64,000 nucleotides of DNA from a virus (IMGVR_UViG_3300045282_000112:20384-84383); one strand, 5' to 3'. Counted from the stretch's first letter, positions 29,580-42,905 are shown. A program made the numbers and translations. The notes: a model not told the origin generated them from the sequence alone.

Positions 29580-30470
29580 TCACGTCAGGGGGACGATGGA
29601 GCACCGACAATTGGGATGGGCGGGGATCAGGTCCCTCGCTTCTGCCAGCGTATAGCTGTTGCCTTCGTAGTTTTCGCATATGTCGCAGACCTTGTCATCC
29701 CCAACCGTCTCGACCGTGTAAGCCTCGGGCGGGCGGTCACGCTCCTCGGGGAACGATACTGCCTCCGGGTTCTCCTCGGGCAACATGCTTTCCGGCACAC
29801 GATGGTCGGGGTGCGTCTCGGCTTCGACGCCCACCGTCTGGATGCCCAGCTCCTCGTAAGCGTCGAGCTTGCCCGCGTTGTATGCCCGGGTAACGTTGGT
29901 AGATGACAACGCGTTGAGGCGGCTCACCAGCGGGCGGATGACGAAGGGCAGGACCGCCATCGTGTAGAGCAGATGGCGTGAGCGGGTGGCCGCCGCCGCC
30001 AGCGTGTCGTCCTCCTCCAGCTGCTGCTTCATCTCGTCGATCTGGTCGAGGAGCATTGCCTCCAGCTCGGTGCGCGCCTTCAGGATCAGGTCAGTGGTGC
30101 TGTTGGTGAGCGGCAGCACTGGGGCGACTTCCTGCCCCGCCTTGCGCACGCCGCGCGCGTAGGCGGTGCGCAACAGCGTTTCCATGTTGTCGGTGGCGGG
30201 CGTGAACGCGAACTCTGCCTGCCTGAGCAACAGGGTATCTAGCCGTTCGAGCAGTGCCTCGATGTCGCCGGGGTCCACGTCGCCGTAGGAATAGCCGAAC
30301 TGATCCGCTTCCACCAAGGCGGCGTAGGCTTGGCTGCGCCACAGCGCGAGGCTCTGCCGCATGCCGGTCGCCATCCTGCGCCGGATGTCGTTCGACTGCG
30401 TCGGGTCACGCTTCTTCGCCGCATCGCTGAAGGCGTGCGGGTGCACATGCGGGGCCGACGCAGGGAACAA
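29580..30470 (-). CDS. Head morphogenesis protein (MuF/SPP1 gp7-like), no toxin extension; start uncertain
   Basis: RDPT, AYARG, TRAYN.GKLD.Y..LG, TVGDDKVCDIC...IPAHPNCRC. Confidence 0.85.
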   Translation of the reverse strand: MFPASAPHVHPHAFSDAAKKRDPTQSNDIRRRMATGMRQSLALWRSQAYAALVEADQFGYSYGDVDPGDIEALLERLDTLLLRQAEFAFTPATDNMETLLRTAYARGVRKAGQEVAPVLPLTNSTTDLILKARTELEAMLLDQIDEMKQQLEEDDTLAAAATRSRHLLYTMAVLPFVIRPLVSRLNALSSTNVTRAYNAGKLDAYEELGIQTVGVEAETHPDHRVPESMLPEENPEAVSFPEERDRPPEAYTVETVGDDKVCDICENYEGNSYTLAEARDLIPAHPNCRCSIVPLT

Positions 30471-30471
30471 C

Positions 30472-30933
30472 TCAGACCCAATCGTCGGGCATGCGCGCGG
30501 CGGGCGTCTTGTTGTCGATGCGCGGCTCGATGCCGTTGGCAATCTGGATCGGCGGCACCAGCTTGCCCGACGCGATGAGCTTGCCAGCCCCGCTGGCCGC
30601 TCCCCCGATGGCGAAGTGCGTGGCGTAGAACGGTTGCACGATGTCGGTCGGGATGGTGAAGGCAATGACGTTGACCGCTGTCACCATGCCGCCGCCCACC
30701 TTCCAGCCGAGCGGATTGCGCGGCACCAGCACGCGCGCGTAGCCAGTGTAGAAGACCTCGCTGGTCAACTGGTCCTGCACCTGATTGGTGGGCAGGATCG
30801 GGTCGGCCTTGCACAGCGACACGTAGAAGCTGGTGAGCGGCGTGGTCGTGTGGTTGATGGCGATGCCTTGGATGGCGACAGCTTGGAAGAGGAGCTTCAA
30901 GATGTCGTCTTCGAACGGAATGGTCGTGGGCAT
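30472..30933 (-). CDS. Virion structural protein
   Basis: FEDDILKLLF...YVSL..ADP...TSEV.YTGYARV...ATHF.IG. Confidence 0.7.
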   Translation of the reverse strand: MPTTIPFEDDILKLLFQAVAIQGIAINHTTTPLTSFYVSLCKADPILPTNQVQDQLTSEVFYTGYARVLVPRNPLGWKVGGGMVTAVNVIAFTIPTDIVQPFYATHFAIGGAASGAGKLIASGKLVPPIQIANGIEPRIDNKTPAARMPDDWV

Positions 30934-31049: not shown

Positions 31050-31262
31050 TTAGTCGATGGGCGGGCCGACGTAGGTCAACACGTTGTTGCGCATTTCGAA
31101 CAGGGTCCAGTCCTGCAGGTGCTCGGGCAGTTCGCTCTCGTATTCCGGGGTCCACTCCTGCGGCAGGTTACCGACCCAGTTGAAGGCGATGTAGTTCTCG
31201 CGATCCACTGGCAAGCCTGCCTTGACCAGCCACCTCTCGATCCCGTCAGGACTTCCTTGCAT
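31050..31262 (-). CDS. Small acidic protein, candidate antidote/partner of the upstream effector
   Basis: 70 aa, overlaps the stop of the 574-aa gene; GLPVDRENYI...EYESELP. Confidence 0.65.
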   Translation of the reverse strand: MQGSPDGIERWLVKAGLPVDRENYIAFNWVGNLPQEWTPEYESELPEHLQDWTLFEMRNNVLTYVGPPID

Positions 31263-32970
31263 TTGCCCGTTCCCCTATCGCCCACACTGCGTCCAGCACC
31301 TTGTCGTGCGTGATCTTGTCGGCGTTGTAATCCTTCCACAACGCTGCGATCTCCGCATCGTCGGCCTTGTTGAGATTGGCGAACAGGTCGCGCTTCACCA
31401 CCCAGATCACTGCCTGCATCTGGTTGGGCAGCAGCGGCGGCTTCTGCTCGGCGGCCAATTGCCGATACGCCTCGGCGTATATGCCGTAGGTGCCGAAAGC
31501 ACCGTAGCGGTTGCTGTCCTTGGCGGGCTCCCAGCCCTCGGGCTTCACCGACGGGTTGTTGGCGAGACCCTGCGAGACGGCGGGCGCGCCACCCGGGTAG
31601 GGCTGCATCCACGCTGCGCCGATAGCGTGCGTATCCATGGTCACGTCACCGTCGAGCCCGTCGGGGTCGAGGATGTTGTTGTAGAAATTGCGCACCTTGT
31701 GGACTTGGCTGAGCGCCTCGCTGATCTGGATGCGGTCGCCGTTCGCCATCAGCGCCGCCACTGCCGCGCCCGTCGCCTTGGTGTTGTTCCAGCCCGCCTT
31801 CGACTTCGCGCCGACTTCCTCGCCCGTATCCGGGGCGTTGGTGTGGAAGTCGCCGAAGGTGCCGTCGGGATTGTAGATGCGGAAGCCATGCCCGCCGTTC
31901 TGCGCGGGGTCGCCATGCGCCTCCTCGTAGGCGCGTATCCACAGGCCCTTCTCTTCGGCGCTCTCGCACTCAGCCAGCGTCTTGCCCACAATGGACGGCA
32001 GCATCTTCACCATCGGCGGCGTCTTCTTGACCTTGCCGGTCTCCCGCAGCTTCTTCTCGGCGGACTTCGCCTCGTCGCTGACCAGCTTGTCGGCGAACGC
32101 CTGCATGCCGTCGTCCCAAGCATGCTCCTGCTTGGTCATGTAGATGTCGATCAGCTGGTCGCCGAGATATATGTTCTGATCCCAGTCCTTCTGCGGCGAA
32201 AGTGCGGCGTAGACGGCGGCGACACTGGCGTCGTTCAGGCCATACTGCTTGACCTTGTGATCGACGATCTGGCGCGCGCCGCGATACCAGTTGACCGCCG
32301 TAAGCTGCGCTGCCGTGGCCTTGCCGAGCAGGTAGTTCATGTTGGTCTTCATGATGCGGATGGCGTTGTGCGCGATGTCGTTGGCGCTGCCCGTCAGCAT
32401 CTCGGGCCGCATGCCCGGGTAGAAGTCGGGGTTCTTCATCAAGTCCATGTTGGCGCTGAAGCGGCCCTTCGTCGTGCCGTCGGGCAGCTTTACCGGGTCG
32501 TCCTCGGTGCGCTGCATCTGCGCGAGGTCGTTCTGGACGTAGGTGTTGTCGCTGTTCTGCGTCTTGAACTTGGTCGAGGTGACGCTGGGGCTGATCTTGG
32601 CCGGGTGCGACGTGGGCTTGGTGCCGCTGATCCGCTCCTTCGGATAGGAGTGCGTGCCGGTCGCCGTTGCCGTCTTCTTGACCGCCTCGGCCTTTGGTGT
32701 GGCTGCCTTGCGCTCGCTGCCCGCCTTCTCGCTGCTGCCGCCGCTGCTGCCGCCACCCGTCGTCCACTCACCCTGCTCGTTGCGCGGCTCGTCGGGATCG
32801 TAGTCGGCGATGACGTGCTTCGGATGCTCGGCGGGCACGAGGAACAACACCTGACCGTCGGCGAAAGTCACCTTGGCGAGCGCATGGTTCTCACGGCTCG
32901 CGGGGCTCCAATCCGACTTGACGTAGGCAACGGTAGCGCGCCGTCCGTTGATCTCCAGCTGCTCGATCAT
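31246..32970 (-). CDS. 574-aa effector-like protein: small N-domain, tag motif, HhH-GPD glycosylase-like domain
   Basis: ATGA overlap at 32970; NWY.GA...AALSPQKDW..N, KVRNFYNNI, VTMDTHA, AEAYR...QMQAVIW. Confidence 0.7.
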   Translation of the reverse strand: MIEQLEINGRRATVAYVKSDWSPASRENHALAKVTFADGQVLFLVPAEHPKHVIADYDPDEPRNEQGEWTTGGGSSGGSSEKAGSERKAATPKAEAVKKTATATGTHSYPKERISGTKPTSHPAKISPSVTSTKFKTQNSDNTYVQNDLAQMQRTEDDPVKLPDGTTKGRFSANMDLMKNPDFYPGMRPEMLTGSANDIAHNAIRIMKTNMNYLLGKATAAQLTAVNWYRGARQIVDHKVKQYGLNDASVAAVYAALSPQKDWDQNIYLGDQLIDIYMTKQEHAWDDGMQAFADKLVSDEAKSAEKKLRETGKVKKTPPMVKMLPSIVGKTLAECESAEEKGLWIRAYEEAHGDPAQNGGHGFRIYNPDGTFGDFHTNAPDTGEEVGAKSKAGWNNTKATGAAVAALMANGDRIQISEALSQVHKVRNFYNNILDPDGLDGDVTMDTHAIGAAWMQPYPGGAPAVSQGLANNPSVKPEGWEPAKDSNRYGAFGTYGIYAEAYRQLAAEQKPPLLPNQMQAVIWVVKRDLFANLNKADDAEIAALWKDYNADKITHDKVLDAVWAIGERANARKS

Positions 32971-35405
32971 CTCAGGCGGCCTTGCTTTACCAGCTCCTTG
33001 TAGGTCTTCTTCACGTCCCGGTAGTAGCTGTTCCAGCTCGGCGTATGCTTGACGCTGCCCAGCTCGTATTCGAGGCGCGCCATCTCGGCCATGGTCTCGT
33101 GCATGCCCTGCCGTGTGGATGCGCCACTGTGCTTGACGGCGTTCCACCACTCGGTCGAGTAGTCGGTGAGCCCGTCCTCGTCGGCCAGCTTCTGCCAGTT
33201 CAGGTTATGCTTCACGAAGCGTTCGTAGATCGGGAACTGCTTGTCGTAGGGCGGGGCGAGGCTGCCGTCGGGGTGCATCCATCCCTTCCACGGTTTGTCG
33301 GGGTCGGGGCCCGGCTCGTTGACGCCCGGCAGCGCCTTCTGCATGGCCTCGCTCTCTGCCTGCAGCGCGTCCAGCACCTGCTGATACTGGATGTGCATCA
33401 CCTCGTGCGAGGTGACGCCCGCGATGGTGCCCGAGTTCAGCTGGTCGGGGAACATCAGCACGGTGCCACGCTTGTGGCCGCCGGGTGGCTGATCCATCGA
33501 GTAGGCCATGCCCGCCGCCATGTATTCCCGCCCGCCCAGCACGAAGCGCGCGTCGGAAGGCTTGCCGATCATCACCGTCTTCGGGTCTGCCCCCAGCTCC
33601 TCGGCGACGTTGCGCGCCTCGTTCAGCGTGTGGTGCACGCCCATCAGGGTTTCGCGGGATGCCCAGACGTAGGGGTCCTCGCTCATCGGCGGGTTGACGA
33701 CGTAGGCGCGCTGCAGCTTCTCGGCCTCCGACCATGAGGTGACGCGCTCGCCATCTGTCCGCGCGTAGCGCTCGCCGCGCTTGGCGTAGAGGGTGGTGAC
33801 GTGCTCCGGGTCGTAGCTCATCAGCACGATGTCGGGCTCGCCCTTGTTGAATTTGGCGAAGGTCTCCTTATTCCAGCCGTCGGGCTTGAAGGTCTCGTTC
33901 CACGGCAGGCGTGCGGCGGCGCGGAAGCCCGCCTCGGCGTAAGCCTGCGGCAGCACGGTGTCGAAGCAGTCGAGGCGTCGGCCGCCTTGATCGACCGCCA
34001 GCTGCAGCGCCGACAGGGCGAAGTTGTCCACCTTGCTGTCGTGGTGCTTGAACACCGAGACGATGTTGTCGCCGTCGAGCGCGAAGCCAGCCTTGCCGTC
34101 GAGCGTCGTGAACAGCCGCAGCTTGCGATAGTCGTCGGGGTCCTTGATCTCCACCGCCGTGCCGTATTTGGTCGAGGCGGCAGCCGCTGCGATGGCGTCT
34201 TGCAGATCGCGGAAGTCGGTGCCCGAGCGGATCATGCGGGTGTTCAGCTCTTCGAAGTGAGCTGGCGTCGCCTTGTTGGTCTTCAGGTAAGCCTTAAATC
34301 CCGGCGTCGGCCGGAAGATCATGCGCCCACCGCTAGTAATTGCTCTAAAGCTTCTTCCTTTGTAAGGCTTGGATGAGCTGACAGGACTTCGCGGAGGAGC
34401 TGGTGCATACGGGGGGTTAGACCCTGCTCCAGCATGCGCCGTGCCTGTTCCTCCAGTGGCGGCCGATGCTCCTCCTCCTGATCCTGCAGCCGAAGGTGAG
34501 CCCCCGCCGCCCCCGCCGCCTTCTCCGGTCCATTGTCCGCCGCCCTCTTCCCCTGCGGGAACTCGCGGTTGGTCTGGGTCATACGCGTCAATCCTCCTGC
34601 TGTCGCTGCTCGCGGCGGCGACACGCTTTTTCAACTCGGTCCAGTGCAAAGTGACACTGGGCGCGACGCGTATGCCGCGCCCCTGTATAAGTGGGGTGCG
34701 GGCGATCACATCGCCACGGTATACGTTAACAATATCGTCGATTGATACACCGCCGATGACCCCTACCTCGTTTTCTGAGGTGCCCTGCACACGGCGCAGG
34801 CGCTCGTCGACGGGTTGCCGGATGGCGATCACGTAGGCGGGCCGGTCCCAATCGGCCTTCTGCTGCTGCGGCGCGAAGCTGCTGGCGTAGGACGCTGCCA
34901 CGCTCGGGTCAGTGGCGTAGTAGGTCAGGCCCTTCTGCGCCTCGCCGATGTTGTATTCGCCCTTGCTGCGCACCTCCCCCGTCGCTTGGATGGCTTCGAA
35001 CTCGGCCGCCGCCATGCCCCGGTAGATGATACCGGCAGAGCGTGCGCCCGGAAGGTCGCCCTGATGCGGGGCAGTCGGGATCAGCTGGTCATGTTCCATG
35101 TCGACCGGCTTGCCCTCATACTCCAGCACCATCCGCTCGTGGCGGTAGAAGCGTGGGTCGTAGTGACCTATCGTGTCGCGGTTGGCTTGGTAGGGCACCC
35201 GCTTCTCGGGTCCTGCAGGCGTGAAGCCTCCCTCGCCCGAGGTCCACTGCCCCGACGGGTCGCGTGGCTGGTCGGGATCGAAGTCCTGCCACCGCTGCAG
35301 CCGCTGGGGCGGGCTGTAGGGCTCGCAATCGAAATGCGCTACCCAAGCGTCCCGAAAGCGGCTGGCGCGCTCCAGCAGGGCTGCAGGGGGCAGGAAAAGG
35401 CTCAC
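32967..35405 (-). CDS. 812-aa polyvalent protein: ART-like, GNAT-like and zincin metallopeptidase domains
   Basis: GTGA overlap start at 35405; YRGM...TYYATD...ENEVGV; DNIVSVF...GGRRLDCFDT.LP..Y...GF; HEVMH...TDYS...HETMAE. Confidence 0.72.
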   Translation of the reverse strand: MSLFLPPAALLERASRFRDAWVAHFDCEPYSPPQRLQRWQDFDPDQPRDPSGQWTSGEGGFTPAGPEKRVPYQANRDTIGHYDPRFYRHERMVLEYEGKPVDMEHDQLIPTAPHQGDLPGARSAGIIYRGMAAAEFEAIQATGEVRSKGEYNIGEAQKGLTYYATDPSVAASYASSFAPQQQKADWDRPAYVIAIRQPVDERLRRVQGTSENEVGVIGGVSIDDIVNVYRGDVIARTPLIQGRGIRVAPSVTLHWTELKKRVAAASSDSRRIDAYDPDQPRVPAGEEGGGQWTGEGGGGGGGSPSAAGSGGGASAATGGTGTAHAGAGSNPPYAPAPPRSPVSSSKPYKGRSFRAITSGGRMIFRPTPGFKAYLKTNKATPAHFEELNTRMIRSGTDFRDLQDAIAAAAASTKYGTAVEIKDPDDYRKLRLFTTLDGKAGFALDGDNIVSVFKHHDSKVDNFALSALQLAVDQGGRRLDCFDTVLPQAYAEAGFRAAARLPWNETFKPDGWNKETFAKFNKGEPDIVLMSYDPEHVTTLYAKRGERYARTDGERVTSWSEAEKLQRAYVVNPPMSEDPYVWASRETLMGVHHTLNEARNVAEELGADPKTVMIGKPSDARFVLGGREYMAAGMAYSMDQPPGGHKRGTVLMFPDQLNSGTIAGVTSHEVMHIQYQQVLDALQAESEAMQKALPGVNEPGPDPDKPWKGWMHPDGSLAPPYDKQFPIYERFVKHNLNWQKLADEDGLTDYSTEWWNAVKHSGASTRQGMHETMAEMARLEYELGSVKHTPSWNSYYRDVKKTYKELVKQGRLR
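34319..34582 (-). CDS. Nested out-of-frame small gene (87 aa) inside the polyvalent-protein linker
   Basis: AGGAGG 10 nt before ATG; helical C-terminus LLREVLSAHPSLTKEEALEQLLAVGA; stop overlaps an in-frame ATG of the host gene. Confidence 0.6.
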   Translation of the reverse strand: MTQTNREFPQGKRAADNGPEKAAGAAGAHLRLQDQEEEHRPPLEEQARRMLEQGLTPRMHQLLREVLSAHPSLTKEEALEQLLAVGA

Positions 35406-36166
35406 AGAGCGAACAGCTCCTCCCACATCGCCTGCGCGTTGGCGAGCGCTTGCGTGGCAGTAGGCCCGCTGCCGAGGCACCTGCCAGTGTGCATGGCCAC
35501 GAAGCTCTCGGCTTCGAACTGCTCGCGGCTGTCCATGGCGTAGGGTGAAACGGCGTCCTTGTCGGCGTAGCGGGCGACGATGGCGTCAACCACATCGGGC
35601 CCGTGCGCGGTGCGCAGCTCCTGCATGAGGATGTGCCCGAACTGGTGCAGGAGCGTGCCGTCGGCGCTGCTGTCGACCATCAGGCCCTTCCACTCACGCT
35701 CGTGTGCAGCGAGCTGGTCGGGGTGCCACTGGCGGGCGTTGAGGATAAGCTTGCCGTCGCCCGCCAGAACGAACTCGCGGTCGCCGAGGTCGCGCATCTC
35801 GACCTTGATGGGGCTGTCGATCAACGGGGAATAGTCCTCCGCGAGCTGGTCCATGGCGTCCTTGGCGTTGAGCTTGGCCTCGGTCTGCTTCATGCGGTAG
35901 CTGTAGCTCGGGCTGCCGTCCGGTCGCACGTCCTCCTCTTCGCCTGCGTCGTCGGGTTCCACGTCCCATTCGAGCAGGTTGTGCATGGGCATGGCGAGGT
36001 CGGAGGCGTTGAACGCGCTCTCCGGGCCCCATGTGCCCGTGCGGTTCGACCATGCGCTGATGACAGTGGTCTCTGGATTGCGCACCTCGGCGGCGCGGAA
36101 CTGCTCGCCCTGCGGGGAGGTGACGTTGTAAACCCGCCGTGCGTTGGGCGGTCTGTCGGCGGCCAT
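35402..36166 (-). CDS. Protein with N-terminal acidic domain and degenerate zincin (HQFGH)
   Basis: AAGGA RBS; LILN, TLLHQFGH, VSPYA...QFEAESF. Confidence 0.7.
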   Translation of the reverse strand: MAADRPPNARRVYNVTSPQGEQFRAAEVRNPETTVISAWSNRTGTWGPESAFNASDLAMPMHNLLEWDVEPDDAGEEEDVRPDGSPSYSYRMKQTEAKLNAKDAMDQLAEDYSPLIDSPIKVEMRDLGDREFVLAGDGKLILNARQWHPDQLAAHEREWKGLMVDSSADGTLLHQFGHILMQELRTAHGPDVVDAIVARYADKDAVSPYAMDSREQFEAESFVAMHTGRCLGSGPTATQALANAQAMWEELFAL

Positions 36167-36200
36167 TAGTTGTCCTTACAAATCGTTTGTATATGGTGCC

Positions 36201-38594
36201 TCAGCAGTCCTTCTGCCAGCCGCAGCCGTCACCGGAGCGGTTGTAACCCTCGACGTATCCGCGCTCCGAGGTCTTCTCGATCTCGTCGATGCGCGCCTCC
36301 TCCTCGGGGCTCTTGTTCTCCTTCGCCACGAGCACGCGGCGCTCCTCGTAGAGCTGGTGACCCTCGCCGAACTTGTATTCGAGCAGCGCGTGGGTGTTGA
36401 ACTGCAGCTCGGTGACGATGCCGTCCTTGGTGCGGAAGTTGAGCATCAGGTCACGGTAGCCTGCCATGGGGGTGAGGAAGCGGTCCTTGACGCGGATCAC
36501 GTCGTTGTTTTCGACGAAGTCCGCCACCGCCTGACGCACGGTCACGCAGTCGTCGAAGGCGACGGTAGCGCGCAGCACATCCTTCAATCCCTCGGGTGGC
36601 ACCTTCTCGTCGCGCATCTTGCGCTCGGCCGACGAGCGCGCCTTCATGGTGCGGGTGCCGGGCTCGGCACTGGTAGCGGGCGGGTAGGTGACCTTGCCGC
36701 CGAACTTCTGTGCAAACTCCTCGACCGTGCTCATGAACTCAGGCTCGGCGGTCTTGCAGGCCGCATACAGCTCGTCGATGTCGTTGGTCGGCTGTATCTG
36801 CTGATCCGGCGGCTGGTAATCCGCGCCCATGTTCTGCGCGATGTCGGTCTTCTTCGCGACCGTGGCCGTGCCCTTCGACTGCGGCGCGGTCTGGGTCTTG
36901 GTGCTGCCGGTAACCTTGGTCTCGCTGCTGGAGCTGCCGCCACCGCCGGGGCCGAACTTGCCCTTGTTGTCGGGCTGGCCGCGCGGGTGCTTGCTCTCTT
37001 CCCACTCGTCGCGCGAGCGCACGCCGAGTAGCTGCCGCACATGATCAGGATCGTAGTCGCGCGTGTGCCGGTAGCGGCGCAGGTTGAGGCGACCGGCGCT
37101 GACCGGCTTGGCGTCACGGGTTGGCTTGCCGCCACCCTTCTGGAACGGGCTACCACCACCGGGCTTCTGCTGCCCCTGCTGGCTCGGGTGCTGGTTGCCC
37201 ATGGCGTTGCCCGCCAGCATCTCCTTGCGCTTCTCGGCCTCGGCTTGCGCTGCCTGCTCCTCGGGGCTCTGCATGCTTTCGAGCGCGAGCTGTTCCTGAT
37301 CCTCAAGCGCCTGCTCAAGGCCCGGGTAGACGCCATCCTCGATCAGCTGGTTCTGCCGCCCGATGCGCAACGCCTCGGCGTCGACCAGCCCCATCATGAC
37401 ATCAAGGTTGGTGACATCGGCCTTCAACTTGGAGACCGCCGCCTTCTCGGTGGCGGGCATCTGCCACAGCGGGTTCCAGATGTAGTAGATCGACGGGTCG
37501 CGCTTGCCCAGTGCAGAGCGGATCAGTGCATCGTCAAGAGAAGCAAGGGCGGGAGACAATACATTGGTCTGATCTGAGTTAACTCGGTCGTAGTAGTTAC
37601 GGACATCACTCTCTCCAGTAGACTGTAGTCCAGCAGGGGACTGTCCCAGCATACGTGTAGCGGGGATGTCTGCTGCACCGGAGGCGATGAGGAGATACAT
37701 CTGCAGGACATCGGGGAGTTGCGTGAAATTCGCATTGATGCGCTCCCACTCCTCCTCCTTGTCGAGGAGCAGCGTGTTGATCACCGACTTCACCGAGTTG
37801 GCATACATGAAGCGTGCGGTGAGCCGGTTCTGATACTCGGCGGTGGCGATGTTCTGCGACAAATCGGGGATTTTAATGATGTCGAACTTGCTTTCGGTGA
37901 CCAACGTCGCGATGGACTGTGTCACCAGCGTCGCCGACATCACGGCGTCCTGCACGTTCTGCAGCACGGGATCGCCCCAGATTTCCCCCATCATCACGGG
38001 GTCGGGCAGCTGCATGCCCTTCAGCACGATGACCCGCGACGGGTGTATCTGGAACTCGTCGCGCGACAGCTCGGTGCCAACGTCCATGTTGCGCGTGAAG
38101 TAGAGCGGCTTGCCGTAGAGCGGGTCCATCACGTCCTTGATGAGCGGACCCGTGCCCAGCGCCCAGCGTGAGACGGGAATGATGAACTCCAGATCGCCCT
38201 TGCCGACCTTCTCGAAATTCAGCGGCTGGCTGGCGCGTCCCTGCTTGATGCCCATGATGATCGCCGCGCCGCCGTAGAGGCGCGCCAAGATCAGCGCCTC
38301 CTTCAGCACGCACTGCACATCGAGGCGCGTCTCTTCGGCCTCCAGCTTCTCGATGACGTTGGTGTCAGCCTGCCACGCACGCCACGCGCGGGTGGCATCC
38401 TGTGCCGGGATGTCGATCAGCTTGCGGGCCAGCCAATTGGCGCGGTAAGCGCTCTCCAGCTCATACTGTGACAGCGGGTTGAACTGGAAAAACGACGCGC
38501 CCGAGGCGGCCTTGTCGCGCCCCGGCACGCCGAAGCCTGCCATGAGGTTGATCAGGCTGTCCTTGAACTCGGCAGTCACCCCTTGATAAGTCAT
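36201..38594 (-). CDS. Portal protein (DUF1073 family) fused to a C-terminal RelA/SpoT-like nucleotidyltransferase
   Basis: WLARKLIDIPAQDATR, ARLYGG, IHPSR, GAADIPATRMLGQSPAGL..TGESD, WNPLWQ; C-term K..SSAERK, KDVLRAT, GYRD, ELQFNT, GHQLYE. Confidence 0.9.
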   Translation of the reverse strand: MTYQGVTAEFKDSLINLMAGFGVPGRDKAASGASFFQFNPLSQYELESAYRANWLARKLIDIPAQDATRAWRAWQADTNVIEKLEAEETRLDVQCVLKEALILARLYGGAAIIMGIKQGRASQPLNFEKVGKGDLEFIIPVSRWALGTGPLIKDVMDPLYGKPLYFTRNMDVGTELSRDEFQIHPSRVIVLKGMQLPDPVMMGEIWGDPVLQNVQDAVMSATLVTQSIATLVTESKFDIIKIPDLSQNIATAEYQNRLTARFMYANSVKSVINTLLLDKEEEWERINANFTQLPDVLQMYLLIASGAADIPATRMLGQSPAGLQSTGESDVRNYYDRVNSDQTNVLSPALASLDDALIRSALGKRDPSIYYIWNPLWQMPATEKAAVSKLKADVTNLDVMMGLVDAEALRIGRQNQLIEDGVYPGLEQALEDQEQLALESMQSPEEQAAQAEAEKRKEMLAGNAMGNQHPSQQGQQKPGGGSPFQKGGGKPTRDAKPVSAGRLNLRRYRHTRDYDPDHVRQLLGVRSRDEWEESKHPRGQPDNKGKFGPGGGGSSSSETKVTGSTKTQTAPQSKGTATVAKKTDIAQNMGADYQPPDQQIQPTNDIDELYAACKTAEPEFMSTVEEFAQKFGGKVTYPPATSAEPGTRTMKARSSAERKMRDEKVPPEGLKDVLRATVAFDDCVTVRQAVADFVENNDVIRVKDRFLTPMAGYRDLMLNFRTKDGIVTELQFNTHALLEYKFGEGHQLYEERRVLVAKENKSPEEEARIDEIEKTSERGYVEGYNRSGDGCGWQKDC

Positions 38595-38735: not shown

Positions 38736-38838
38736 CGTAGTGCTGTTGTGCCCACATGATGCCGACGACCACGCCGATCACCATGCCGCCGAACATCGCG
38801 AGCACGGCAAACAGCGTGCACAGCGCGGCGGTCGTCAC
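38728..38838 (-). CDS. Small TM peptide in the lysis cassette
   Basis: GTGA overlap with the endolysin stop; LFAVLAMFGGMVIGVVVGIMW. Confidence 0.45.
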   Translation of the reverse strand: MTTAALCTLFAVLAMFGGMVIGVVVGIMWAQQHYGV

Positions 38839-39527
38839 ACCATCACCTGCACTTCACGCCGCAGCTTGTCGCCGCACTCCCTCGCGCCCTGCTCAGTGCT
38901 GTCGAAGGCGAGGCGCGTGTAGTCCCACTTGCCTTCCTGTGCGACGCCGCAATTGGCCTGCACCTCGGCGTGGCTGAGCACGGTCTGCGGCGTGACCGGG
39001 ATGCCGTAGAAGACGCAGAGGTCGGCGACGACCGCGATCAGCACTTCCCATTGGTCCTCGGTCATCGGGTAGTCGCCTGCGTCGAACGGGCTTTCCTTCG
39101 CGCCCGACATGCAGCACAGCGAGACGCCGATGGACCCTGTGTTGAAATTCTTGGTGTGCGCCGCGTAGGTGCCGTCGCTGGTGCTGACGTTGTCCTTGAT
39201 CGAGTAGGAGCCACGCACCAGCTTGCCGTCGCCCTCGATCAGGATGTGGTAGTGTGGTGTGTCACCACCGCCCGCCTTGTGCGTGCCAGCGGTCCAGTGG
39301 CAGATGACACGCTCCATGTCGCAGTCTGGCATCCACGACGGCGGCACAATGCCGGGGACGGGGCCTTCACCACCCTCCTCGACCTCGGGCGGCGCAGGCA
39401 GCGGTGCGAACTCGTCGAGCGCATCGAAGATCGCCTCCTCGGTGAGCGGCCCATACATGCCGTCGCTCGGACCCGGGTCGAAGCCCAGCGAGCGCAAGCG
39501 GTCCTGCAGTTCGTCGGTTCGCATCAT
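38835..39527 (-). CDS. Endolysin: peptidoglycan-binding domain + N-acetylmuramoyl-L-alanine amidase
   Basis: LQDRLRSLGFDPGPSDGMYGPLT; ICHWTAG, YHILI, AHT...NTGSIGV, LSHAEV. Confidence 0.92.
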   Translation of the reverse strand: MMRTDELQDRLRSLGFDPGPSDGMYGPLTEEAIFDALDEFAPLPAPPEVEEGGEGPVPGIVPPSWMPDCDMERVICHWTAGTHKAGGGDTPHYHILIEGDGKLVRGSYSIKDNVSTSDGTYAAHTKNFNTGSIGVSLCCMSGAKESPFDAGDYPMTEDQWEVLIAVVADLCVFYGIPVTPQTVLSHAEVQANCGVAQEGKWDYTRLAFDSTEQGARECGDKLRREVQVMV

Positions 39528-41152: not shown

Positions 41153-41361
41153 TTCTTGAACTTCGGCATACCGGGACGGTCAAGCCCGACATCGGGCAGC
41201 GGCTGCTCTGGCCTCGGCTGCGGGCGCACCGAGCGGGCCGCCTTCATGCGTGTCGCCATCTCGCGGATGAACTCGTGGCGCGTGATGCCCATTGCGTCCC
41301 ACGGCGTCTGCTTCTTGTCGCCGGTCGCGGGCTTCGCGGCGGTCTTCGCTGCTGCTACCAT
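41149..41361 (-). CDS. Hypothetical protein
   Basis: GGAG RBS; overlaps the terminase stop. Confidence 0.55.
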   Translation of the reverse strand: MVAAAKTAAKPATGDKKQTPWDAMGITRHEFIREMATRMKAARSVRPQPRPEQPLPDVGLDRPGMPKFKN

Positions 41362-42905
41362 AGCCTTGCTCCTCCGAACACCTTCTGTGCCAGAATGTTG
41401 CTGGGAACGTCGCCGACCCAGCTCATGTCGCTGCGGTAAGTAGAGCCCAGCGTGAGCTTGGAGAACGCGCCTGCGGCTGCATCCACCATGTCAACGTAGG
41501 CTCCGTTGGGGAAGGTCTCGTGCTCGCCGATGAACTCCTTGTTCCACTCGGCGGCGAGGATCGACACGTTGCCTGCCTGAACTTGGGCGGCGTAGGGATC
41601 GGCGCGGATGTGCTTGGCATCGGTGACCTTGTCGGCCTCCACCTTGTAGCCCGACAGCATGCGCACCGTGGCCTCGGCGCTGTCCTTGCCACCTGAGCCG
41701 GGCTCTTGCTCTACCACGGTCAGCACGTTGTTGCCCACGTCCTGCCGGTCGAGCTGTGCTGTCTGCAGGATCATCTTCTCGCGGTCGAGCGCCGAGAGCT
41801 GCTTGCGGCGCACGTCGGTGACGATGAAGCGCCCGTCATTCAGCTTCGACATGCGCACGCCCGCAGTATAAGCACCACCCATTTCTGTGGCTGCTTTGTC
41901 CCAGTAACGGACAGTCTTGGCGATGTCCTTGGGTGCTGCTTGCACAACACGAAATTGCTCGATGGGGAACATACCCCCGCCAGCAATGATCGGGTTCTGC
42001 TGGTATAAGCTCACCCATGAGGCTTGGCTCAGGCCACGGCGGCGTTCCTCTAGGAACTCCAGCGACTTGAACTCGGGGAACAGCGCCTCGCCCTTCTTGC
42101 GGTGCGCCTCGTCCTTGATGGCGATGGCCGGGTAGTCGAGCACCACGGTCTCGGGGAATTTTTCGAGGAAGCGACCGGCCGGATCGTCGAGGTGCCAGCG
42201 GGTCAGCGTCATCAGCAGCGCGGCGTGATCCGAGAAGCGGGTGAAGAAGTCGTCGGTGAGCCAGCTCCACGTCGCGTCGCGCACGGTCTTGGAATTGGCC
42301 TCGCGCCTGCCCTTGATCGGATCGTCGATGAAGCCGAAATCAAGGCCCTTGCCCGTGACCTGTCCCGACACCGTCGTGTTGCGGAAACTGCCCTTGAATG
42401 CGCCCTGCACGGTCGGGTTAGTCGGCGTGTGCTCGCCCATGTATTCGAGCAGGTTGTTGTTGCGCATGCCCCCGACAGAGCGGCCGAAGGTGGGGAGGCG
42501 AGCACCGAACACTGACTTGAAGCGGTCGCCGTCCATCATGCGCTGCAGTGAGACGTTGACGCCCTGCCCGAGGTCGTCGGAATAGCTGGTGAACAGGCAC
42601 TTGAGATTTGGATTGCGGCCCGCCACCCATGCGATGAAGTCGGTGACCACGGTCGTCTTGCCGTGCTGTGGTGGTGCCATCAACACAAGCTTTGGCCGCT
42701 CACCGTTCATGAAGCGGTAGTAGAACGCCTCAAGATGGTCGCATACTTCCTTGATCCACCAGCCGCGAACCAAGTCTTTCTCACGGATGTGACAACGGAA
42801 ATTGTAGAAGAACTGTCGCGCCTCGCAGCGCGCCAACTCCTCTACCAATGCTACATCACGGCTGTTCTTGACCTTCGGCAGGAGGTCAGTGGTAAATCCG
42901 GTCAA
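41355..42905 (-). CDS. terL: Terminase large subunit
   Basis: APPQHGKT Walker A, IDDPIK Walker B, TRWHLDD, LYQQNP, YWDKA, EQEPGSGGK, DMVDA. Confidence 0.96.
   Translation of the reverse strand: MTGFTTDLLPKVKNSRDVALVEELARCEARQFFYNFRCHIREKDLVRGWWIKEVCDHLEAFYYRFMNGERPKLVLMAPPQHGKTTVVTDFIAWVAGRNPNLKCLFTSYSDDLGQGVNVSLQRMMDGDRFKSVFGARLPTFGRSVGGMRNNNLLEYMGEHTPTNPTVQGAFKGSFRNTTVSGQVTGKGLDFGFIDDPIKGRREANSKTVRDATWSWLTDDFFTRFSDHAALLMTLTRWHLDDPAGRFLEKFPETVVLDYPAIAIKDEAHRKKGEALFPEFKSLEFLEERRRGLSQASWVSLYQQNPIIAGGGMFPIEQFRVVQAAPKDIAKTVRYWDKAATEMGGAYTAGVRMSKLNDGRFIVTDVRRKQLSALDREKMILQTAQLDRQDVGNNVLTVVEQEPGSGGKDSAEATVRMLSGYKVEADKVTDAKHIRADPYAAQVQAGNVSILAAEWNKEFIGEHETFPNGAYVDMVDAAAGAFSKLTLGSTYRSDMSWVGDVPSNILAQKVFGGARLW

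Follow-up and report, generated by a model that had tools for sequence, protein, structure and literature searches.

A tagged enzyme array between the portal and MuF genes

We analyzed a 64,000-nucleotide stretch of viral DNA (the window), which comprises bases 20384-84383 of one 84,383-bp IMG/VR virus record of linear class (IMGVR_UViG_3300045282_000112). The subject is an array of genes at 31050-38594, between the portal and the MuF-like minor head protein, in which enzyme-like domains stand behind a recurring header peptide (the tag). All genes of interest are on the minus strand. The array consists of the following genes:

36201-38594, minus strand: portal, 797 amino acids (aa)
35402-36166, minus strand: 254-aa open reading frame (ORF)
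32967-35405, minus strand: 812-aa ORF (the polyprotein), GTG start
31246-32970, minus strand: 574-aa ORF
31050-31262, minus strand: 70-aa ORF (p70), acidic partner gene of DUF7178

The original prediction, made from the sequence before this analysis, had read a series of conflict-type enzyme domains into this interval. This reading holds in large part; the ADP-ribosyltransferase (ART), GNAT and zincin domains make up the single 812-aa ORF and not three genes. The overlaps that it described for the last four genes are present: GTGA between the 254-aa and 812-aa genes (the GTG start lies on the upstream stop), ATGA between the 812-aa and 574-aa genes, and 17 nt between the 574-aa and 70-aa genes.

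Two forms of the tag occur in the array, either aromatic-D-P-D-Q/E-P-R...G-x-W-GGG or WEESKHPR...GKF. The pattern [YFW][DN]P[DNES][QEH][PAV]R has four matches in a six-frame search of the complete 84,383-bp contig (window positions 37055, 35282, 34583 and 32802), all in frame in array genes, and the complete WEESKHPR..GKF form is found at 36954-37001 in the portal. Four modules, the RelA/SpoT-homologue (RSH), ART, GNAT and DUF7178 domains, are headed by a complete tag. The common tag claimed for four modules was thus recovered, and its pattern lies nowhere else in the contig. Models were made with AlphaFold2 (AF2) and are scored by the predicted local distance difference test (pLDDT). The tags are as follows:

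36954-37055, minus strand: portal junction, with a degenerate tag YDPDHVR (37035-37055), then a complete HPR-type tag WEESKHPRGQPDNKGKF (36954-37001) and a Gly/Ser linker
35244-35282, minus strand: polyprotein tag 1, FDPDQPRDPSGQW, in a segment of pLDDT <50 (residues 25-62)
34530-34583, minus strand: polyprotein tag 2, YDPDQPRVPAGEEGGGQW, then a Gly/Ser/Ala linker of ~65 residues; pLDDT <50 over residues 261-366
32764-32802, minus strand: tag of the 574-aa protein, YDPDEPRNEQGEW, then a Gly/Ser linker; pLDDT <50 over residues 56-106

In the portal, 11 residues separate YDPDHVR from the complete tag (WEESKHPRGQPDNKGKF-GPGGGG). Because the first copy lacks the G-x-W half, the working tag of the portal is presumably the HPR form. 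The tags lie in AF2 segments of pLDDT <50, immediately ahead of folded domains. The four tag copies agree pairwise at only 16 to 24 of 33 bases, indicating that the peptide and not the DNA is conserved and that the copies do not stem from a recent duplication.

Domains of the array

The domains and leaders of the array are as follows:

37185-38594, minus strand: portal core, residues 1-470; PF06381 Phage_portal_3, E=7.5e-99 (residues 44-395); PHROG 146, E=9.6e-119 (residues 11-470)
36204-36812, minus strand: Tas1-like RSH domain at the portal C-terminus, residues ~595-797
35286-35405, minus strand: N-terminal leader of the polyprotein, residues 1-40; one helix (residues 7-24) at pLDDT 54-63 (AF2)
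34626-35213, minus strand: ART-like domain, residues ~65-260; AF2 pLDDT 83-97
33690-34208, minus strand: GNAT-like acetyltransferase domain, residues ~400-572; PHROG 2563
32970-33674, minus strand: gluzincin-type metallopeptidase domain, residues 578-812; HEVMH at 33393-33407; AF2 pLDDT mostly 84-98
32806-32970, minus strand: beta-rich leader of the 574-aa protein, ~55 residues; AF2 strands at 2-7, 10-17, 31-36 and 41-44
31249-32613, minus strand: DUF7178 core, residues ~120-574; PF23802, E=3.2e-20; all-alpha, AF2 pLDDT 91-98

A phmmer search against PDB with the last 209 residues of the portal matched residues 603-742 (~140 residues) to Tas1 (6ox6; E=1.6e-5), with the D..R.T, GY and E-[LI]-Q-x-N synthetase motifs aligned between the two. 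The Pfam RelA_SpoT profile remained under threshold on the portal tail (13.7 bits versus a cut-off of 27; E=0.078). This alignment identifies the portal C-terminus as a putative Tas1-like (p)ppApp synthetase-type domain, which agrees with the RelA/SpoT-like domain first proposed for it. Since the domain is covalently fused to the portal, it is in the capsid by construction. None of the isolated phages in a collection of 50,697 records matched the portal extension; the best match covered 54% of the query, and the portal part only.

The AF2 model of the polyprotein, built from a 60-sequence alignment, had a mean pLDDT of 74 and was well modeled over residues 65-260, ~430-570 and 580-812. Conserved columns of the ART and zincin domains were counted in per-domain alignments of stored homologues. 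The ART-like domain retains the Arg, Ser/Thr and Glu of the R-S-E type, with R129, T161 and E213 each kept in 36/36 homologue rows. Foldseek matched it to pertussis toxin S1 (E 0.066-0.086; probability 0.90-0.98) and to CARDS (to E 0.37), and its matches to ART toxins overall, including a mosquitocidal toxin, ranged from E 0.066 to 0.83. The conserved triad, together with the weak match to pertussis S1, bears out the ART-like assignment. The domain is also 41.8% identical to part of a 'large polyvalent protein' of Planktothrix phage Pag-Yong1. For the GNAT-like domain, Foldseek found GCN5, RimI, PaiA and a Salmonella phage acetyltransferase (probability 0.93-0.99), which favors the predicted fold, but the E values are weak (0.013-0.03; 0.013-0.8 when the TacT/AtaT toxins are included) and Pfam gave no GNAT match in the polyprotein. 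The stored set holds 121 proteins homologous to this domain, and G474 is kept in 122/122 rows. A 101-aa out-of-frame ORF (34319-34624, same strand) lies within the Gly-rich linker of the polyprotein.

The metallopeptidase domain bears out the expected zincin. Its HExxH residues H667, E668 and H671 are kept in 29/29 homologues and the downstream E770 and E774 in 31/31, and the language-model (Atlas) features of residues 578-812 scored 0.94 for 'Zincin-like metallopeptidase' and 0.91-0.93 for Wss1-like, ATLF and M90. The neighboring 254-aa protein, supposed to be a pseudo-zincin, has HQFGH where zincins have HExxH, and its Atlas model reached template-modeling (TM) scores of 0.49-0.54 against Peptidase_M90, Peptidase_Mx and MuF-toxin clusters; no Pfam or PHROG family matched it. 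We considered it as a copy of the array zincin, but the BLASTP comparison was not significant (E=0.70), though HQFGH aligns with HEVMH. The model similarity thus leaves a degenerate zincin as a lead only.

A phmmer search of 1.84 billion representatives with the polyprotein returned 3,396 proteins at E≤0.001, 287 of them at E≤1e-30. Among the 150 matches listed, lengths ran from 167 to 4,209 residues and the matched stretch lay at almost any position, indicating that the relatives are shuffled modules.

The 574-aa protein is made up of the ~55-residue beta-rich leader, the disordered tag and linker (residues 56-106) and the all-alpha core. The leader also heads five proteins with differing cargo (P0035, P0164, P0163, P0006 and P0159; 34-50% identity, E 2e-16 to 8e-9). 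It comprises ~50 residues with a consensus of roughly M-I-x-x-x-V-x-G-R-x-A-T-V-A-Y...L-x-K-V-x-F-D-D-G and always stands before the first tag. Such leaders may serve as head anchors where fusion is absent. In the window, as in locus L006, the leader begins directly after a zincin domain.

The DUF7178 core had been read as an HhH-glycosylase-like domain, which our searches did not bear out. Whole-chain Foldseek against PDB gave no fold match (best E 0.54) and no glycosylase, a profile of 63 sequences found no glycosylase among PDB sequences, and hhalign against E. coli Nth (endonuclease III) gave a probability of 0.13%. PF00730 (HhH-GPD) had no match in the contig, versus matches in 14/14 control genomes. 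What remains is a likeness of motif. The core has 16 invariant residues, including K425, D446, T447 and H448, and the model shows a helix, a 4-residue turn, a helix, a 12-residue D/P/G loop and the invariant D446-T447-H448, with K425 21 residues upstream. This layout resembles ..LPGVGRKTANVV..VDTHIFR of Nth, in which we take K120 and D138 to be the catalytic residues. In BFVD, all 16 matches at E≤0.001 were phage proteins that bear no functional name. DUF7178, with at least 567 relatives in IMG/VR, therefore appears from its model to be a widespread phage enzyme-like domain without a matched fold class. Its relatives include fusions with ART-PolyVal, PF18823, GNAT or a CwlJ-like hydrolase.

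In 47 of 80 IMG/VR loci (L112-L191; tblastn E≤1e-4), DUF7178 is succeeded by a p70-like ORF of the same orientation (48 loci when either strand is counted), whereas the upstream neighbors vary (zincin in 5, ART in 3, leader in 3). By this co-occurrence, DUF7178 and the ~70-aa acidic ORF are a conserved two-gene cassette, in which p70 could act as inhibitor or chaperone or confer immunity. Of the small proteins or domains that the original prediction saw interspersed in the array, only p70 stands as a possible immunity module; the N-terminal pieces of the 812-aa and 574-aa proteins are leaders.

Occurrence of the tag on other phage proteins

We searched 153 stored relatives, 149 from the phmmer search with the polyprotein and four others, for the pattern [HQ][PS]R-x(2-9)-G-x-[WF]. 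It occurred 105 times in 57 of the 153, compared with one to six times in each of 20 shuffles. The aligned copies fall into two forms, [WFY]-[DN]-E-x-x-HPR and the less common [FY]-[DNS]-P-[DNS]-QPR, followed by a spacer that is 3 residues long in 57 copies and 8 in 41, and then G-[RKQ]-[WF]-T-[DS]-G-G-G. Domains present in the relatives rich in tags are ART-PolyVal, GNAT, topoisomerase IB, MuF, ADPrib_exo_Tox and DUF7178.

A sample independent of homology was obtained by scanning IMG/VR with a degenerate DNA pattern of WDESKHPR, which gave at least 102 stretches, of which 80 loci were read. These hold 83 ORFs with the pattern in frame, 81 of them with the whole tag. Pfam was run on 81 tag ORFs of at least 100 aa, and 25 of the 32 families found are considered here. 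Five portal families were among them: PF06381 (Phage_portal_3) in 11 ORFs, PF05136 (Phage_portal_2) in 4, PF06074 (Portal_Mu) in 2, and PF04860 (Phage_portal) and PF21919 (P23-45 portal) in one each, amounting to up to 19 ORFs, as one ORF may carry two. Other families were LPD3 (12), PBECR1 (6), DUF2213 (5), MuF (Phage_Mu_F; 4) and ART-PolyVal (4). LPD1 is also among the PolyVal-type domains of the relatives and tag-bearing ORFs. Many ORFs open 4 to 30 residues ahead of the tag (e.g., L040, L075, L026 and L010), and there the tag fits a signal better than a junction.

The same DNA pattern was found in bacterial genome contigs of many phyla (at least 120 stretches, 80 loci read). The pattern was in frame in 77 cases; 49 are strict tags, roughly seven more have a longer spacer by our reading, and ~11 belong to an unrelated cellular protein. 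The tags in bacterial contigs are probably in prophages; cultured strains of Neisseria, Microbacterium, Nitratidesulfovibrio, Beijerinckia and Bifidobacterium are among the carriers of the pattern. The cellular protein, from Balneolaceae and related Bacteroidota (WWCDVKDSWDESKHPR...VITG), matches the DNA pattern and was rejected as a tag; it reads WWCDV(K/Q)(D/E)SWDE(S/T)KHPR and then ...VITG (L193, L194, L208, L221, L231, L232, L244, L251, L252, L258 and L263). A family of 115-residue ORFs opens with a hydrophobic stretch of ~15 residues, after which comes the tag (..LLLAARVWDGWDESKHPRKSNGQF..); besides several contigs of viruses, it is present in one Bacteroidaceae contig and in one from an E. 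coli isolate (L031, L068, L073, L077-L079, L222 and L246).

Exchange of modules among relatives

The window was compared side by side with locus L001, which ends after 3.6 kb, and with single proteins. The word-based search for close relatives of the whole array found P0002 and P0003 only, no IMG/VR sequence matched the patterns made from the polyprotein and the 254-aa protein, and the metagenome scan with the portal did not have the 84.7-kb contig of P0002 among its matches. The portal of L001 is 77.7% identical to that of the window over 511 residues, in an ORF of 1,451 residues that runs from portal through tag, a flavin/pyridine-nucleotide oxidoreductase-like domain, coiled coil and tag to a ParB-like domain (so labeled from a DGHHRW motif, no family being matched). 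The next ORF of L001 opens with a tag and continues as P0002, with ART-like and DUF7178 domains. P0004 joins a portal to Pyr_redox and an RSH domain 58% identical to that of the window. In P0005 (two tags) and P0006 (three tags), the homologous RSH domain closes a protein that is not a portal. Different modules thus stand behind the same tag in L001, P0004, P0005 and P0006, which is the domain exchange that had been set beforehand as a check.

Further cases extend this picture. P0003 has a GNAT-like module behind a lambda-family portal, P0019 has the C-terminal HPNCRC motif of MuF followed by tag and cargo, and small unrelated cargo domains follow portal tags in other phages. Portals only 21-25% identical keep WEESKHPR at the same place, the portal end. 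Three loci with portals 45-46% identical (L002-L004) have no tag and no array, with the DUF2213 gene 1.3-2.2 kb downstream; this interval is 7.4 kb in the window. The comparison supports reading the array as a variable set of cargo linked to proteins of the head interior.

Genomic setting

The contig is 84% complete by CheckV and has a G+C content of 60-67%. The array is flanked by genes for terminase, portal, MuF, DUF2213, cement and capsid proteins. The neighboring genes are as follows:

41355-42905, minus strand: large terminase (Terminase_6N/6C)
38835-39527, minus strand: endolysin-like Amidase_2 plus PG_binding_1 gene, between terminase and portal
30472-30933, minus strand: Gp80-like ORF (PF23140 Gp80, E=1.1e-6); probable start ATG 30933, read from start and ribosome-binding site
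29580-30470, minus strand: MuF-like minor head protein; PF04233 at 29.4 bits versus a cut-off of 29.6; PHROGs, minor head protein/head morphogenesis
27351-28823, minus strand: ChaB plus DUF2213 protein (DUF2213 1.9e-50, ChaB 9.2e-19; PHROG 530 'head maturation protease' 6.8e-90)
After the DUF2213 gene in transcription order, minus strand: cement protein, then PF09950 capsid protein

The PF04233 match covers profile positions 64-111 of 112 and residues 313-357 of the 361 of MuF. As it stops 4 residues short of the stop, MuF has no C-terminal extension, and the absence of a toxin extension reported for it was confirmed. The Pfam name of the Gp80 match is 'podophage GP4 fiber I protein'; the gene lies inside the head module, between the cargo genes and MuF. 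Within its first ~130 residues, the DUF2213 protein has the N-terminal ChaB and then two copies of a Cys-containing acidic repeat, C-x-E-x-S-x-x-Y-D-E-E-K-C-A-A. Elsewhere in the window, a 1,193-aa tail-spike-like protein (21582-25163) shows internal repeats (..H[LF][IV]P..DN..D[IV]G....R[VL]R..[HY]A..) and matches an endosialidase domain weakly.

Short contigs 95-100% identical to the window were present, beyond the soil sample from which the window probably comes, in soil metagenomes of two further studies (X2 and X3), covering 28 of 30 bins each; one bin (31338-31671) had no cover in the metagenome comparison. Four contigs of 151 to 191 bases with zero mismatches (30081-30240, 34347-34497, 34485-34635 and 38318-38508) came from two RNA-library rows that are probably duplicate entries of one data set; they do not establish transcription.

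Relation to known systems

The array is a member of the phage-type polyvalent proteins, a class known since 2017. The main text of Iyer 2017 (PMC5512222) describes phage-type polyvalent proteins with ART beside GNAT and with portal and MuF fusions, restricts RelA/SpoT to the phage type, predicts delivery with the DNA and proposes that a zincin 'MPTase' cuts the polyvalent protein into units. The array shares with these proteins unrelated conflict enzymes in one polypeptide, ART by GNAT, an MPTase-type zincin and a place among head genes. Two or more unrelated catalytic domains per polypeptide were found in the 812-aa ORF (ART-like, GNAT-like and zincin), and the portal with its RSH domain was counted here as well; the location among head and packaging genes is also that of the class. 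However, the array's own domains match no Pfam PolyVal model (ART-PolyVal, MPTase-PolyVal or LPD), the cargo is spread over a portal fusion and three further genes, and we did not find the recurring header in the main text of that paper. A second similar example is gp47 of phi24B, a polyvalent protein of large size that includes a metallopeptidase domain; according to the preprint (bioRxiv 10.64898/2026.04.10.717836), it was found in virions by proteomics and is a proposed ejection protein. It differs in being one giant protein with LPD domains.

The MuF polymorphic toxins are also similar. According to the main text of Jamet 2017 (PMC5576092), they bear RelA-like, ART and metallopeptidase domains, and Paulet 2025 (PMC12226406) reports that MuF-Apk2 toxins make (p)ppApp. 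Like the array, these systems place toxin domains with variable C-termini on a head-interior protein by the portal; as described in those texts, they have immunity partners. In contrast, MuF and a toxin domain are not joined in one protein in the window: MuF is unextended, the Tas1/Apk-like domain is on the portal, and no integrase was seen in the contig. The main text of Jamet 2017 makes no mention of a conserved motif, linker or cleavage. Tas1 itself, a type VI (p)ppApp synthetase toxin of Pseudomonas aeruginosa, aligns with the portal tail in GY and E-x-Q-x-N, but delivery of the portal domain would be by the phage head and not by the type VI secretion system, and its RelA_SpoT score lies under threshold.

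Two further systems have comparable short peptides. In T4, the internal proteins and Alt bear a capsid-targeting sequence that is cut by the gp21 prohead protease, and Alt is an injected ART. The array resembles this arrangement in having a short signal on proteins that would be packed in the head and injected. However, the T4 signal is N-terminal, ~10 residues long and confined to T4-like heads, whereas the array tag is also found after portals and separating one domain from the next, and phages with at least five portal families share it. The VENN peptide of CdiA marks the border between the constant delivery part and the exchangeable toxin domains; the array tag differs from it in sequence, in delivery machine and in having several copies per protein. 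We found no description of the tag in the literature searched, including the main texts of Iyer 2017 and Jamet 2017. As a compact case of the polyvalent class, the locus contributes a DUF1073 portal that bears a Tas1-like domain, two neighboring zincins of which one is intact and one degenerate, and DUF7178 together with p70.

Interpretation

We interpret the region as an accessory cargo section of a tailed-phage head module, of polyvalent type, in which exchangeable cargo is marked by the header and handled in the head by release, loading or both, and we give this interpretation a probability of about 60%. Enzymes that poison or reprogram the cell would be attached to, or encoded beside, proteins of the procapsid interior. 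A Tas1-like (p)ppApp synthetase would sit on the inward-facing C-terminus of every portal subunit, the polyprotein would supply ADP-ribosyltransferase and acetyltransferase enzymes together with an intact zincin peptidase, and the leader-bearing 574-aa protein would supply the DUF7178 enzyme, probably restrained or escorted by p70. Each exchangeable module would open with a disordered header of ~20 residues (aromatic, acidic, (H/Q/E)PR, 3 or 8 residues, G-x-W/F) and then a Gly-rich linker. This header would be the conserved cassette junction that marks the start of the cargo, and would most likely serve cargo handling in the head through nearby cleavage for release, through loading, or both. 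Portal-fused cargo can leave the head only if it is cut off, so a cut at or near the tag is the simplest reading for the portal fusions; candidate cutters are the array's own zincin and the head protease. The released domains, packaged and injected with the DNA, may then act on ATP pools, proteins and perhaps DNA, possibly against host defenses. The earlier proposal that the head protease cuts at Asp sites was not upheld, as the HPR form, which is the commoner one, has no Asp-Pro pair and at least five portal families share the tag. The latter also makes a single head protease an unlikely reader of the tag. Among the papers listed in a literature search on DUF2213, DUF1073 and DUF2184, none dealt with cleavage specificity.

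Several results weigh against this interpretation. Within the array, neither the zincin domain nor the 254-aa protein is tagged. The tag is frequent, not obligatory: it lies ≤150 residues upstream in only 14/35 ART, 42/122 GNAT and 7/31 zincin homologues, and was found in 9/116 DUF7178 homologues. Only 7 isolated phages hold any homologue of the polyprotein, and the tag is absent from two of them, Pag-Yong1 and UtzChips (gp4). The Foldseek matches of the ART and GNAT domains are weak (E 0.007-0.09; none at E≤0.001 in PDB), and the polyprotein has no Pfam match at E≤10, including ART-PolyVal and MPTase-PolyVal. We found no virion data for the phage of the window or for any tag-bearing phage. 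A zincin in cis is evidently not required, as only 10 of 83 tag ORFs have HExxH. Moreover, no single function explains all tag positions, because portal fusions need no address and ORFs that open with the tag need no junction.

Other explanations of the tag were weighed against the same observations. The tag may be where the array's own zincin binds or cuts, acting as an MPTase that frees the enzymes in the head or after injection, with head protease and address irrelevant. An intact gluzincin within the same polyprotein and the autoprocessing role proposed for MPTases in the main text of Iyer 2017 (PMC5512222) speak for this, and a protease that travels with its cargo would explain one tag across five portal families. 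Tag ORFs show an enrichment of HExxH of about four-fold (10 versus 1-5 in shuffles), but these are only 10 of 83, and any ORF of at least 150 aa with HExxH was present in only 26 of the 80 loci, which are mostly partial and lack a control. P0006 has three tags and no HExxH seen on reading, and many proteins open with the tag, with nothing upstream to remove. We therefore regard this explanation as possible but doubtful. Rather unlikely, in our assessment, is a true capsid-addressing signal of the T4 kind, which would suffice for procapsid loading and be removed by the head protease. The many ORFs that open 4-30 residues ahead of the tag, the occurrence of the tag on proteins encoded in head modules and the precedent of T4 are consistent with it. 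Portal, MuF and DUF2213 fusions, however, need no address yet keep the tag, other tags are internal between domains, the Asp-Pro pair is not kept in the HPR form, and the sharing of the tag by at least five portal families probably means different scaffolds and proteases.

The remaining explanations concern the enzymes as much as the tag. The array could be a phage-borne polymorphic toxin/immunity set for bacterial competition, like MuF/Apk2 of temperate phages, in which small partners protect the lysogen. The family of the Tas1-like domain is one of bactericidal toxins (PMC12226406), p70 is kept behind DUF7178 in 47/80 loci, a constant motif before variable C-terminal domains resembles polymorphic-toxin design, and the pattern is also found in bacterial contigs of many phyla, probably prophages. 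But the integrase family PF00589 was not found in the contig (84% complete), MuF carries no toxin, and the ART, GNAT and RSH modules have no evident partner gene, so we consider this unlikely; it is compatible with, not exclusive of, the infection cargo proposed above. Least probable, to the point of being a slim chance, is that the enzymes act as ordinary late proteins in the cytoplasm, their genes merely lying in the head module, and that the tag is a flexible linker or recombination boundary with no virion role. There is no direct evidence of packaging, the tags are disordered, and conserved boundaries could simply favor cassette exchange. A mere linker, however, would not need a peptide conserved across phyla and through synonymous differences between copies, and the portal fusion places the RSH domain in the capsid.

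Within the preferred interpretation of head-handled, exchangeable cargo, a broader claim can be put forward only tentatively: the header could be a portable, lineage-independent handling signal, so that any protein behind it, whether on a portal, MuF, a scaffold/protease or a short leader, would be loaded into tailed-phage heads, released from them, or both. Such a signal would explain the retention of the tag in phages of at least five portal families and of many bacterial phyla. If true, phage-delivered effectors would follow a general grammar that has not been described so far, and they could be listed from sequence alone. If the header marks capsid cargo, phage-injected toxins, anti-defense enzymes and unknown folds such as DUF7178 could be listed in this way, and the header could be used in laboratory strains to load chosen proteins into phage heads. 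The array also offers test pairs in DUF7178/p70 and in the Tas1-like domain with the adjacent degenerate zincin. For the phage itself, a portal with twelve copies of a (p)ppApp synthetase would add host shutdown at the moment of DNA entry.

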